Shown piece after piece: positions 4,497 through 36,864 of a stretch of DNA of 64,000 bases. This stretch comes from Candidatus Woykebacteria bacterium (lineage in GTDB: Bacteria; Patescibacteriota; Microgenomatia; Woykebacterales; RBG-16-39-9b), in assembly GCA_040876265.1 (NCBI GenBank), contig JBBDPN010000002.1:3954-67953 (forward strand), read 5' to 3'. Position numbers and translations under genes: made by a program. Every line of letters starts with the position of its first letter. The first letter of the stretch is position 1. The notes under the pieces are model-generated. The model ran no database searches, was not told the DNA's origin, and saw only the letters and a program-made list of their open reading frames with translations.

Positions 4497-4572
4497 GGGC
4501 CTGTGGCGCAATTGGTAGCGCGCCTCCATGGCATGGAGGAGGTTAGGGGTTCAAGTCCCCTCAGGTCCACCA
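4497..4572 (+). tRNA. tRNA-Ala (anticodon GGC)
   Basis: Cloverleaf read by eye. Acceptor GGGCCTG/CAGGTCC carries the G3:U70 Ala identity pair. Anticodon loop is AUGGCAU. CCA is encoded. Confidence 0.85.
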
Positions 4573-4573
4573 A

Positions 4574-4649
4574 GGGCCGTTAGCTCAGTGATCAGAGCGC
4601 TGCCTTCGCATGGCAGAGGTCGTGGGTTTAAATCCCACACGGTCCACCA
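4574..4649 (+). tRNA. tRNA-Ala (anticodon CGC)
   Basis: Acceptor GGGCCGT/ACGGTCC with G3:U70. Anticodon loop is UUCGCAU. Encoded CCA. One nucleotide after the previous tRNA. Confidence 0.85.
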
Positions 4650-29165: not shown

Positions 29166-29422
29166 AACCAGGCGAGCAATAGATTTCAAATGAACAACCC
29201 AGCGTTGCTGTTGGGCTAATCATAAAAATGAGACGTGACCTTAGCCCACGACCTGGCTGACTTCAGGCAGGAGTGGTCGCAGACCATGTTACATATAAAT
29301 AGGCCGTGAATCTTAAATAGTGGAATGCTATCTGACAACGATCAAGATAGCAATGCAACTATCGCAGGTCATGGCCAACAAATGAAAAGCCCCGATTTTA
29401 ATCGGGGCTTAACATATTAATA

Positions 29423-29532
29423 CGGCCATGACCTACTTTCCCAGGCCCTGCGGACCAAGTATCATCGGCGCTGCCAGTTTTTACGACCGAGTTCGGGATG
29501 GGATCGGGTAGAGCCCTGGCGCTCCAACGGCC
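29423..29532 (-). rRNA. rrf: 5S rRNA
   Basis: The minus strand reads ...CCCGAACUCGGUCGUAAAAACUGGCAGCGCCGAUGAUACUUGG...GGGAAAGUAGGUCAUGGCCG, matching 5S conserved blocks. Ends are approximate. Confidence 0.7.
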
Positions 29533-29777
29533 TTGAGTTAGTCGTCAGTTGTAAGTTGTAAGCAACTTAACAACTAACCCAAAACCGTTTTTCTTACAAC
29601 TTAGAAATTAAATCTTATAACTAAGTCCTGCACCCTGAAAACTGGATAGAAGTATTTTGGATCTGATGTGATCTTAGAGAACGGAGCACTATTGAAACAA
29701 AGATTTCAATAGTAGCGTAGTTCTCGCAGATCGCAACTGATCCTAAGGATCTTTTACGATCTGTTAGTACGGCTTAG

Positions 29778-32660
<2,883 letters not shown>

Positions 32661-32856
32661 CAGATAACAGTTACCAAGACGTTAACTGCTATCTGACCTT
32701 CTATCCAGTTTTTAAGGTACCATCTTAGATCAAAGATATAAGATGTTAGATGTAAGATATCTTAAAGTCTGACATCTTAAATCTGACATCCATACCTTGG
32801 CTTGCCATGAGCAAGACTTCGACGTTGAGCTCAGTCGAACCGCGCAGAGCGTCGAA

Positions 32857-32933
32857 TGGTGGACCTGGCCGGATTCGAACCGGCGACCTCTGCCTTGCAA
32901 AGGCAGCGCTCTAACCAACTGAGCCACAGGCCC
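32857..32933 (-). tRNA. tRNA-Ala (anticodon UGC) in the 16S-23S spacer
   Basis: Reverse complement GGGCCTGTGGCTCAGTTGGTTAGAGCGCTGCCTTTGCAAGGCAGAGGTCGCCGGTTCGAATCCGGCCAGGTCCACCA. G3:U70 present. Anticodon loop is UUUGCAA. Confidence 0.85.
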
Positions 32934-33241
32934 GCGCAAGCACAAGGCGCTATTCTAGCAATATTAAATTTTGGTGTCTAGAGGGAACTTTAGGTTGGAG
33001 GTGAATTACCTACGCTTCTACGAAGTGAGTAAGAAACAAATATAAGTTTTGCGTAAATCACTTGCCTAAAATCCCTCCTGTGAATGATCCTTCGACGCTG
33101 CTCAGGATCACCCCGAGCTTGCCGAAGGGTGAGAATAATTCACTCATCAACCGCAATATAGCACCAATTTGGGCTTCCGTCAAGGTAGAGACAGACCAGT
33201 TAGCACTCTTGAAAAGTGCTTTGCTAATTTTTAGCCCACGC

Positions 33242-33300
33242 TAGTGGTCGCAGCACGCAAGAGTATCTAAATAATGAGTTTCTAACGAAATTATTTAGTT
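33242..33300 (-). promoter_or_regulatory. Hairpin (CTAAATAAT..ATTATTTAG) followed by box TAYTCTTGCG..GCGACCACTA, spacer copy; boxB/boxA-like antitermination candidate
   Basis: The same two-part element recurs at 37357-37435 upstream of 16S. It lies upstream of tRNA-Ala/23S in the sense orientation. Confidence 0.4.
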
Positions 33301-33380
33301 ACGGAGCGGGTTTAGCAACAGCGCAGCACGCGGAGTAGCTGGCTTTGAGCGCTAGCGAAACGGCATAAGCTACGAGCGGG

Positions 33381-33734
33381 CTATCTGTGGCTTTCGTTGA
33401 GGATCTTCCAGTTCCAGTTTCTTTTTTTGTTGGAGCCGATTTTCTTGATGATGGCTTTTTCGAGGTCAATTTTCAATGATCCAGAAAGATGTAGTAATCG
33501 TTGGAGTACGTCGCCAAGCTCTTCTTCAAAACCACCTTTGCCTTTAATTTTTTTGTGGCGATAAGCCTCATAAGCTTCGGAGATTTCGCTGTGAAGCAAG
33601 GCTATCTTTTCCGGCACGCTTATATCTTTCCGACTTGTGCCAAAACCTTTTTCCCGGGCTTGTTCCATAACGAGTTCCGTTAATTGTTTCAGGGTAAGAT
33701 TTTTCACGAAGGTATTATATACCCGTAAATCCAA
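33381..33734 (-). CDS. MazG-like nucleoside triphosphate pyrophosphohydrolase domain protein, encoded inside the rRNA spacer
   Basis: KIALLHSEISEAYEAYR ... EELGDVLQRLLHL matches the MazG/NTP-PPase helix pair with the EExxE/ExxD metal ligands. Same strand as the rRNAs. Confidence 0.55.
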   Translation of the reverse strand: MDLRVYNTFVKNLTLKQLTELVMEQAREKGFGTSRKDISVPEKIALLHSEISEAYEAYRHKKIKGKGGFEEELGDVLQRLLHLSGSLKIDLEKAIIKKIGSNKKRNWNWKILNESHR

Positions 33735-34009
33735 TCGCGAACTTGGTCTGGATCATAAAAACTTCCATTAAGAATAAAATAATGTGTCTTGGGAAATTCA
33801 AGAATAGTGTCATTAATTAATTCAAGCTCGTTTTCTATCGAACCAAAAAAAGATTCGCAGGGTCTTACCCTGTGAGTAAAATGATACCGCCCAAGAGAGT
33901 GTATTTTGATAGTCATATGATTCTCCATGTGAGAAATTTTGGTACCCATAACTATATTATACAAATCTTATCTGACCCATTGAGTTCATCAAAAAAAAAG
34001 GGGGGGGGA

Positions 34010-34384
34010 TTAAAACAAGGTTTCGGGTTTGACCCTGTGTTTAATCAAGCATTCATTGTAAAAAGCGTTTATTTCATCTGGTGTTTTCAACCCACCTTTT
34101 AACTGGATGTAGCTATAATAATCTGTAATGCCACCAACGTTAGGTATCAATTCCGGCTCGTAAATAGCTGCATTCAAGGGTCTGTTGTCAGCAATTTTCG
34201 CTTTTTTTCTAAATTCGCTTATACAGATTTGCCTTACCTCCACTGGTCTCCATTCAAACCAATAGAAACTACCAATCAAAAATAATGTTATTGAGGCTAA
34301 AGATACTGATAAAAAGATGGTCTTAGATTTGTTCATAAATATTTTTGAAAATATGGTGGGCGCGGATGGGATAAACCGCTCCAT
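34010..34384 (-). CDS. Small membrane-anchored hypothetical protein inside the rRNA spacer
   Basis: 124-aa ORF with one N-terminal TM helix (TIFLSVSLASITLFLIGSFYWF). On the same strand as the rRNAs. No recognisable family. Confidence 0.3.
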   Translation of the reverse strand: MERFIPSAPTIFSKIFMNKSKTIFLSVSLASITLFLIGSFYWFEWRPVEVRQICISEFRKKAKIADNRPLNAAIYEPELIPNVGGITDYYSYIQLKGGLKTPDEINAFYNECLIKHRVKPETLF

Positions 34385-34501
34385 AATTCGAAACTTTCAG
34401 TTTCTTAAGTATTCCCGCGTTTTGCGACCACGCTAAGCGTGGGCTACGAACCTGGGACCCCTACATTAGACGCAACTAAAGCTGCTATCTTTTGCGATTC
34501 A

Positions 34502-34577
34502 TGGTGCGCGCGCATGGATTCGAACCATGGACCCCTACATTATCAGTGTAGTGCTCTAACCACTGAGCTACGCGCGC
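34502..34577 (-). tRNA. tRNA-Ile (anticodon GAU) in the 16S-23S spacer
   Basis: Reverse complement GCGCGCGTAGCTCAGTGGTTAGAGCACTACACTGATAATGTAGGGGTCCATGGTTCGAATCCATGCGCGCGCACCA. Anticodon loop is CUGAUAA. Confidence 0.85.
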
Positions 34578-34827
34578 AAAAGTGCACCGCTTCGCGTTTC
34601 GCTTTTTCTTACGCAAAAGTCATAGTTGTGCTCTAACCACTGAGCTATCCGCCCAGATTTTCAAAATACAGATCAACGCTCGTACCACTGACCTGCCTGC
34701 CGGCAGGCAGGGCTACGCGCCCAAATCGAGTTCAAATTCTAGCATAAACGCAAAAACCCCGCAACGTACGGGGTTTTCCAATTAATGTAATCCTTCGATC
34801 ATCTCAGGATTTTGCTTCGCTCAACAA

Positions 34828-34852
34828 CTCAACATGTAGCAAGAACGAACGT
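34828..34852 (-). promoter_or_regulatory. 3' half of the 16S processing stem (pairs with 36640-36662)
   Basis: CAACATGTAGCAAGAAC here is the exact reverse complement of GTTCTTGCTACATGTTG at 36644-36660. This is the classic long-range stem bracketing 16S for RNase III. Confidence 0.6.
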
Positions 34853-34996
34853 CCTTCCACCAAAGTGGTGGGTGACTTAGTCTTGCCGTGAGAGCAAGAC
34901 CATAGAGCCATAAATATCGTAGCTCTGATTGCTCCTTTTGTCTCCCATACTTGGCAACCCTCCGATTTAATCGGAGTTTACCTAAATATAAAAAGA

Positions 34997-36490
<1,494 letters not shown>

Positions 36491-36864
36491 AAGATCGCTC
36501 CGTACTTCCCCACTCTTTGTAAAGGGCGGGTTCGGTACTCTCGCGTTCTGCGCTCTGCAAAGCAGAGCTTAGAAAAGTTGATCAGTTGTTCAGAATTGAC
36601 GTTCTTTTCCTACTTACATTGTCCTTGCGGCAACTGTAAGAAGGGTTCTTGCTACATGTTGAATTGTCCTCCGATTTGATCGGAGAGCAATTTGTTAAAT
36701 TGTCAAAGTGCTTGATTGGTATGTTCTCCAACGAAAAAGAGCTGGCACAAACCGAGCTCTTGCAAAGGGTCCAAATGTGCACTCAAAAATAAGTTTACAT
36801 ACCAATTCTCATTTCCGAACTCATTTTAGTTTAAAAATTATACTCTGTCAAGGGACAGCGGGTA

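Follow-up and report, generated by a model that had tools for sequence, protein, structure and literature searches.

A fixed MazG-like gene and candidate internal transcription signals in the 16S-23S rRNA gap of a Candidatus Woykebacteria genome

Bacterial 16S and 23S rRNA genes lying more than 1500 bp apart have been termed unlinked, and Patescibacteria are rich in such genes (Brewer et al., bioRxiv 10.1101/705046). Among circularised genomes of the Candidate Phyla Radiation (CPR), 27 of 34 had unlinked rRNA genes (Lui et al., PMC8172020). Protein genes inside CPR rRNA clusters have also been published (PMC8172020; 'Ca. Chazhemtobacterium aquaticus' Ch65, Kadnikov et al. 2020, PMC7143001). 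Here we describe a MazG-like gene that sits between the genes for 16S and 23S rRNA of a Candidatus Woykebacteria metagenome-assembled genome (MAG). The stretch analysed, referred to as the window, is 64,000 nt of contig JBBDPN010000002.1. An earlier reading of the same letters, called the original prediction below, had pointed to a 2.3-kb 16S-23S spacer holding protein-coding genes. With RNA genes called by Rfam and ARAGORN, together with open reading frame (ORF) calls, this was confirmed: the gap runs from 32656 to 34995, is 2340 nt long and contains at least two protein genes. Calling protein genes in an rRNA spacer rare was an overstatement for CPR bacteria, as the two published reports demonstrate.

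The gap of the window falls within the definition of Brewer et al. However, the unlinked genes in their study are mostly more than 6 kb apart and scattered, whereas those of the window are adjacent, in canonical order, on one strand and accompanied by both spacer tRNAs. The clusters in PMC8172020 and PMC7143001 come from the same phylum-level group as ours, but there the arrangement is noted in passing. The example named is homing endonucleases, and MazG is not named. Ch65 has two genes between trnI and trnA, which may or may not include MazG. Neither paper reports cross-lineage conservation, internal promoters or terminators, or nested tRNA-Ile copies. A literature search found no paper linking MazG with an rRNA operon and none of relevance on leaderless transcripts in Patescibacteria, and the Woykebacteria papers found do not discuss the rRNA operon. 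Arrangements of this kind have been published for CPR bacteria before; the additions here are a MazG gene fixed in position, conserved signals inside the gap and the nested tRNA-Ile copies.

The rrs-rrlA region of Borrelia burgdorferi also has kilobases of sequence between 16S and 23S-5S, with tRNA-Ala and an oppositely oriented tRNA-Ile. Housekeeping ORFs lie in that region as well. Two of the loci compared with the window (given below by L numbers), L001 and L098, likewise have an inverted tRNA-Ile. The two systems differ in phylum, ORFs and tRNA order, Borrelia has a tandem 23S-5S duplication, and there is no sign of common descent.

On balance, we favour the reading that the gap is a row of small, separately promoted modules and not a plain transcribed spacer. 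Four adjacent units are proposed from the sequence: 16S; tRNA-Ile; MazG; and tRNA-Ala-23S-5S. All of these features are on the minus strand, in the following order: 16S (34996-36492, a full-length Rfam match of 1444.7 bits), tRNA-Ile(GAT) (34502-34577, ARAGORN), an ORF with a transmembrane (TM) helix, a C9T9 homopolymer pair, a second ORF (ORF2), the MazG-like gene, tRNA-Ala(TGC) (32857-32933, Rfam and ARAGORN), 23S (29743-32655, Rfam) and 5S (29420-29535, Rfam). A terminator hairpin is predicted after 5S (29387-29410). The rRNA genes and spacer tRNAs are in canonical order on a single strand, with a processing helix around each rRNA. The gap is not a canonical short spacer (at most 1500 nt, with tRNAs only), and its sequence shows a conserved terminator-like hairpin and internal promoter-like elements. 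No further known RNA was found in the spacer by Rfam at a permissive threshold. The original prediction had the gene order and strand right, with all three ORFs on the rRNA sense strand. The existence of the three ORFs also stood, but their start codons did not: the MazG-like gene is now placed at a GTG at 33707, and an ATG at 34336 is likelier for the TM ORF.

The position of MazG was compared across related rRNA clusters. In the eight related lineages sampled, MazG lies between tRNA-Ile and tRNA-Ala within the 16S-23S interval. Every homologue at least 72% identical to the MazG of the window occupies this interval, as does one at 70%: L001-3 and L098 (82-83%, tRNA-Ile inverted), L112 (82%), L090/L096 (77%), L004/5 (74%), L115 (74%), L006-10 (72%) and L099 (70%). 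The 16S genes of these relatives are ~91% identical to that of the window (L098 and L112, over available regions of ~1-1.5 kb) and their 23S genes 83-90%. More distant homologues (~90 CPR/DPANN loci examined) do not share this position: those of 79 GTDB species loci, of other loci from metagenomes and of L092, L093, L116 and L117 lie outside rRNA clusters. The exceptions are L018 (16S, MazG, tRNA-Val) and L051 (16S, 3.2 kb, tRNA-Ile, tRNA-Val, MazG), in which MazG is downstream of an unlinked 16S gene. The possibility that MazG sits in rRNA clusters across CPR generally was rejected; only L010 among the 79 GTDB loci has the arrangement. Because the distant homologues lie outside rRNA clusters, the sampled sequences indicate that one clade, and not CPR as a whole, has a MazG gene in the rRNA gap as a conserved trait. 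The position fixed in eight lineages, together with strong purifying selection (below), also means that MazG is not a recent passenger. The original prediction had allowed for a lineage-specific feature, and for MazG this alternative was right. MazG would have been fixed here before the sampled lineages diverged, while other ORFs come and go.

The arrangement could be an assembly artefact, with the 16S and 23S halves misjoined or the ORF segment derived from another genome; the original prediction had named misassembly as one finding that would overturn it. The rRNA regions of MAGs are notorious for chimeric assembly, and the junction between 16S and tRNA-Ile in the window is known from one assembly. 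However, a Logan contig (SRR27977662) extends from within tRNA-Ile across the ORFs and tRNA-Ala and reaches 264 nt into 23S, at 100% identity to the window, and the stretch from 16S through the terminator to TGCTAGAAT is collinear with L112. Several independent related assemblies have 16S, MazG and 23S contiguous on single contigs, and synteny extends past 5S, where the genes for an S1-domain protein and ClpB are collinear with L006. An artefact is almost certainly not the explanation.

The MazG-like gene (33381-33707) has a GTG start and encodes 108 aa, identical to NCBI MEX0621949.1, which is annotated as a MazG-domain protein. Profile searches agreed with the original prediction that it is MazG-like; the product is a predicted nucleoside-triphosphate (NTP) pyrophosphohydrolase of the DCTPP1/YpjD type. 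It scored 22.8 bits against Pfam PF03819 (cut-off 22, a narrow pass), matched the phage pyrophosphatase family PHROG 3301 (E=2e-18) and, in a profile search of the PDB, matched B. subtilis YpjD (E=3e-5) and also DCTPP1. We found 90 homologues, mostly from CPR bacteria and DPANN archaea. E41, E44, E63 and D66 are invariant across 30 aligned homologues and form the ExxE...ExxD metal-binding motif; the 18 residues between ExxE and ExxD are within the 12-28 range of the motif. An AlphaFold2 model (predicted local distance difference test score, pLDDT, 93.1) is all-helical, with five helices, four of them long. The top 50 Foldseek matches of the model in the PDB all come from the all-alpha NTP-pyrophosphatase superfamily, the best being mouse and human dCTP pyrophosphatase (DCTPP1), Bacillus MazG and YpjD (TM-scores 0.67-0.73). 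Codon usage is coding-like. Among the copies in rRNA clusters, synonymous sites are saturated, the proportion of nonsynonymous differences (pN) is 0.06-0.19, and dN/dS, where computable, is 0.04-0.13. This is a genuine MazG-like gene: its product has the fold of the all-alpha NTP-pyrophosphatases, and purifying selection on it is strong.

The protein shares a single-domain helical-bundle fold and the ExxE...ExxD motif with DCTPP1/RS21-C6 and Bacillus YpjD/MazG. It differs in being only 24-29% identical to them and in lying within an rRNA gene cluster, a location that the literature search did not turn up for any known member. The commonest same-strand neighbours of 78 homologues are genes for NUDIX, dUTPase, Tmk, YfbR-like 5'-deoxynucleotidase, deoxynucleoside kinase (dNK) and serine hydroxymethyltransferase (SHMT). 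In the L116/L117 set (L116 105-3243, L117 381-4183), one homologue lies within a row of thyA, dcd/dUTPase, dCMP-deaminase, MazG and tmk, and another adjoins a reverse transcriptase and an HpaII-type restriction-modification pair. Given the DCTPP1-like fold and these neighbours from deoxynucleoside-triphosphate (dNTP) pathways, the product is probably a (d)NTP pyrophosphatase that acts in the salvage or house-cleaning of pyrimidine dNTPs. It would probably clean or reroute pyrimidine dNTPs in an organism living on salvaged nucleotides.

Several observations on the family were made along the way. MazG homologues common to CPR bacteria and DPANN archaea are ~60-68% identical, which suggests horizontal exchange or binning errors. 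L010 (DASVHF010000009.1) is titled 'Candidatus Nanoarchaeia archaeon', yet its 16S/23S genes are bacterial and ~88-90% identical to those of the window. Further MazG records appear mislabelled (L018, L035, L041 and others), some being titled 'uncultured Gammaproteobacteria'.

The signals around each unit were then read from conserved boxes and hairpins. A putative 16S promoter-like element, TTGACA-17-TAAAAT (36823-36851), has 11/12 consensus matches. The leader strand of the 16S processing helix, CAACATGTAGCAAGAAC (36645-36661, kept in L098), forms a perfect 17-bp duplex with the trailer strand, GTTCTTGCTACATGTTG (34830-34846), whose GCTACAT.TTG core is kept in 7 lineages. About 50 nt past the trailer strand is an intrinsic-terminator-like hairpin, AAAACCCCG-loop-CGGGGTTTTT (34752-34777; -16.4 kcal/mol, z = -2.9), which is similar to the terminator that follows 5S. 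Seven lineages retain its stem and U-tract, with loops that differ in sequence and length. The 16S unit would thus be closed by a processing helix of its own and by a conserved hairpin of the intrinsic-terminator type. The tRNA-Ile module would have its own -10 box, an extended -10-like TGCTAGAAT (34736-34744); TGCTA(G/A)AAT is found at the matching position ahead of tRNA-Ile in L112 and L090.

Upstream of MazG, a TATAAT box (33714-33719) lies 6 nt before the GTG and is a putative promoter. In all lineages of the clade, the distance from the end of TATAAT (CATAAT in L090) to the GTG or ATG of MazG is 6-7 nt, while the sequence upstream of the box is unrelated between lineages. This spacing suggests that the MazG mRNA is probably leaderless. 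Two tandem sigma-70-type promoter-like elements would drive tRNA-Ala-23S-5S: P1, TTGACG-17-TATATT with TG (33155-33183), and P2, TAGACA-17-TAGAAT with TG (32952-32980), both putative. The P1 sequence CTTGAC-17-TGnTATATT is invariant in 9 sequences from 8 lineages. For P2, the -35 part CCCTCTAGACA is invariant in 9/9 sequences and the -10 box is kept in 8/9. Both stand out amid the poorly conserved sequence between MazG and tRNA-Ala. No terminator-like structure was found between MazG and P1/P2, so MazG transcripts probably continue into tRNA-Ala, where RNase P cleavage would define their 3' end. The 23S 5' processing-helix strand, AAAACTGGATAGAAG (32698-32712), is kept in relatives and forms a 15-bp helix with 29638-29652, and the processing helices are local to each rRNA gene.

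Another possible explanation is a classical single rrn operon, in which one pre-rRNA extends from the 16S promoter to the 5S terminator and the ORFs are co-transcribed passengers, with their mRNA freed as RNase P and RNase Z excise tRNA-Ile and tRNA-Ala. All genes being on one strand in canonical order would fit this, as would the coding block flanked by tRNAs, the lack of a terminator between MazG and tRNA-Ala, and the boxA-like GCACTTTGA motifs in the 16S leader and upstream of 23S. It is at odds with the GC-rich hairpin and U-tract past the 16S processing helix, which is kept in 7 lineages with variable loops, with the invariant near-consensus promoter-like element ahead of tRNA-Ala-23S, and with the TATAAT that, in every lineage, is spaced from the MazG start as for a leaderless mRNA. 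In addition, tRNA-Ile is on the opposite strand in L001 and L098 and therefore cannot belong to a 16S-23S transcript there. We consider a single operon unlikely. The original prediction had suggested that the ORFs are co-transcribed; this is doubtful, given the conserved terminator-like hairpin downstream of 16S and the conserved promoter-like elements ahead of tRNA-Ile, MazG and tRNA-Ala-23S.

Several points weigh against separately promoted modules and a clade-wide resident MazG. The promoter, terminator and leaderless-start assignments are taken from sequence conservation, and the candidate MazG promoter has a weak -35 region. Antitermination complexes on rRNA might read through the hairpin, resulting in some co-transcription from the 16S promoter. 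Internal promoters are also present in ordinary rrn operons. The clade is defined by only eight lineages, mostly short metagenome contigs, and L092, with a 71% identical homologue, has it outside an rRNA cluster. The Pfam score of MazG just clears the threshold, and the predicted substrate is drawn from fold and neighbours.

The location of MazG could itself be adaptive, with its expression coupled to stable-RNA synthesis so that nucleotide pools are sanitised alongside rRNA and tRNA transcription. Its position within the rRNA cluster is conserved, and the family is enriched just downstream of tRNA genes. Outside the clade, a same-strand tRNA lies at most 300 nt upstream of 10/89 MazG homologues compared with 24/1002 other ORFs at the same loci (odds ratio 5.2, p=2e-4; counted over L011-L088 and L100-L110, with one or two loci duplicated between collections). 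A second nucleotide-cleaning enzyme, a NUDIX hydrolase, is present in the 16S-tRNA-Ile slot of L006-L010 (L006 600-1007). Set against this, most homologues do not lie close to stable-RNA genes, several of the tRNA-adjacent copies have a terminator between the tRNA and the gene as well as their own -10 box, and the fold and neighbours favour dNTP over NTP substrates. Sanitation of the NTP pool for rRNA synthesis was considered specifically; a DCTPP1-like fold and neighbours from dNTP pathways make it less likely. An adaptive location is thus quite improbable as the explanation. Two related observations are that the MazG homologue of L029 lies inside a tRNA-Thr/Tyr/Thr array, and that NUDIX is the top same-strand neighbour of MazG elsewhere (5/111), which suggests a recurrent pairing of two nucleotide-cleaning enzymes.

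Between tRNA-Ile and MazG, the favoured row of modules would include a variable slot, occupied here by a small membrane-protein gene and the doubtful ORF2. The TM ORF (34010-34336, ATG 34336) encodes a small membrane-anchored protein of 108 aa, NCBI MEX0621950.1 (hypothetical protein); a 124-aa version would start within a tRNA remnant. As the original prediction had it, this is a TM peptide: its TM helix is N-terminal, and the sequence contains a G.FYWF.WRP motif along with two conserved Cys. It was at first taken for an orphan after a word-index search returned itself only, and this was withdrawn when 51 small relatives, weak and distant, emerged from a full HMMER scan against 1.8 billion representatives. 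The relatives share the N-terminal anchor, a G.FYWF.WRP.EIRK.C motif and the second conserved Cys. As a family (P0094-P0143) they are unannotated, membrane-anchored proteins of ~70-110 aa with an invariant FYW...P motif. The codon score of 0.10 is inside the coding range, and for this reason the TM ORF is probably a real gene. It was not found in the spacer of any relative examined.

ORF2 (33704-33949) has 81 aa from an ATG or 86 aa from a TTG at 33964. It is doubtful as a gene because a word-index search returned itself only, its codon score of -0.01 is below all true-frame control windows, it is called in the Logan assembly only (81 aa) with no NCBI annotation, and its 3' end overlaps the conserved -10 box of MazG. 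The C9T9 pair, rightly placed between these two ORFs by the original prediction, was located at 33991-34008, directly after the stop codon of the TM ORF. It is not present in relatives and no hairpin precedes it; it may be prone to slippage or serve as a U-tract.

Other ORFs in the gap are polymorphic for presence among relatives, whereas MazG is always present. L001, L098, L099 and L112 have none. The slot between 16S and tRNA-Ile holds the NUDIX hydrolase in L006 and an ORF of 448 aa in L004/5, and the slot between tRNA-Ile and MazG holds ORFs of 78 aa and 260 aa in L090, an ORF of 224 aa in L115 and the TM ORF and ORF2 in the window. Shared ancestry of these cargo ORFs from different lineages was looked for and none was found. 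No integrase, transposase or phage-family match was found among the cargo ORFs of the window or the relatives' spacers. The 706-nt insertion, compared by blastn and tblastx with all loci and the window, yielded tRNA-end remnants only. Judged from these sequences, the slot beside tRNA-Ile is variable, and the TM ORF and ORF2 are an insertion there that is specific to this lineage.

The original prediction had also noticed partial tRNA-Ile-like fragments around the real tRNA, and local alignment against three tRNA-Ile alleles bore this out. The module (34343-34722) consists of an intact tRNA nested in half-copies. It begins with positions 1 to ~34 of tRNA-Ile from one allele (34722 to ~34669, positions 1-11 being 34712-34722), followed by the repeat TATTTTGAAAATCT (34655-34668), one arm of an inverted repeat, and positions 1-35 of a second allele (34620-34654). 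Next are a 41-nt leader, the intact tRNA-Ile (34502-34577) and a 33-nt trailer, and then positions 36-62 (34442-34468), positions 61-76 (34354-34369) and the inverted partner of TATTTTGAAAATCT, AGATTTTCAAA (34343-34356). The halves are complementary, split at anticodon position 35/36 (1-35 and 36-76). The same break recurs in L001/L098, L115, L112 and L006, and the inner and outer alleles differ. Nested copies in relatives are at L112 1278-1474, L115 1150-1343 and 2151-2249, L001 368-626, L098 4333-4591 and L006 1032-1330; L005 and L099 have a single clean tRNA-Ile. The tRNA-Ile region is a recombination hot spot. The 12-14-nt inverted repeats TATTTTGAAAATCT / AGATTTTCAAA flank the unit and would extend the acceptor stem, and a GCGAAGC mini-hairpin motif recurs in linkers around tRNA-Ile.

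These fragments raise the possibility that a mobile element integrated at tRNA-Ile and left the whole three-ORF block, with MazG, as its remnant. Elements that integrate into tRNA genes reportedly use att sites in the anticodon loop. The 3'-half copies here likewise start from the anticodon loop and include the 3' flank, and in L115 tRNA-Ile and 3'-half repeats bracket the 224-aa ORF as in an att site. The placement of MazG homologues elsewhere downstream of tRNAs, 5x more often than their neighbours, the match of MazG to phage pyrophosphatase families and the lower GC of the TM/ORF2 segment would also be consistent with such an origin. However, the position of MazG is identical in all relatives, even in L005 and L099 with their clean tRNA-Ile, and the gene is under purifying selection. 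The 3' fragments of the window (34442-34468, 34354-34369) are upstream of the ORFs and flank the tRNA, not the ORFs. No integrase or transposase was found in any spacer examined, and no recombinase near the tRNA-Ile modules of the window and the relatives listed. Moreover, 5' halves (1-35) exactly complement 3' halves (36-76) around an intact inner tRNA, unlike in the known elements, and simple attP x attB integration does not fit for this reason. A mobile-element origin of the whole block is very unlikely. The suggestion of the original prediction that an element integrated at tRNA-Ile holds loosely for the variable ORFs, with the att-like brackets of L115, and fails for the window, in which the fragments do not bracket the ORFs and there is no integrase.

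A 27-nt imperfect inverted repeat around the ORF block (34405-34431, 33244-33270) was also considered as transposon ends. It was not convincing as a terminal repeat because relatives carry its GCGTGCTGCGACCAC motif singly elsewhere. The motif, ACTCT(T)GCGTGCTGCGACCAC-T..-GTGG, occurs in the window in inverted orientation after the tRNA-Ile fragments and in direct orientation after MazG, and it is found after MazG in L001 (~1060-1100) and before tRNA-Ile in L006 (~1095-1125).

A more speculative idea, improbable as it stands, is that a tiny integrase-less cassette (TATTTTGAAAATCT, tRNA-Ile, AGATTTTCAAA) has repeatedly inserted precisely between positions 35/36, replacing the resident function and sometimes bringing cargo ORFs. 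If so, the rRNA gap of this clade would be a self-renewing landing pad, the window would show three nested layers, and L112, L115, L001/L098 and L006 would share the break point with different outer and inner alleles.

Elsewhere in the window, two tRNA-Ala genes (GGC and CGC anticodons) lie 1 nt apart on the plus strand (4497-4649). Together with the spacer tRNA-Ala(TGC), the window has three tRNA-Ala isoacceptors.

The locus illustrates in detail what may be found in a CPR rRNA cluster that is 'unlinked but adjacent': a separate processing helix for each rRNA, a putative terminator, candidate separate promoters, one fixed housekeeping gene and a variable slot. This bears on CPR genome annotation and on models of how rRNA operons break up in reduced genomes. 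Users of 16S-internal transcribed spacer (ITS)-23S amplicons should note that their length assumptions fail for a protein-coding 'ITS' of 2.3 kb. The nested tRNA-Ile halves could reveal a new mode of tRNA gene targeting and replacement. Finally, the fixed DCTPP1-like pyrophosphatase is a reminder that organisms that salvage nucleotides must clean their nucleotide pool.

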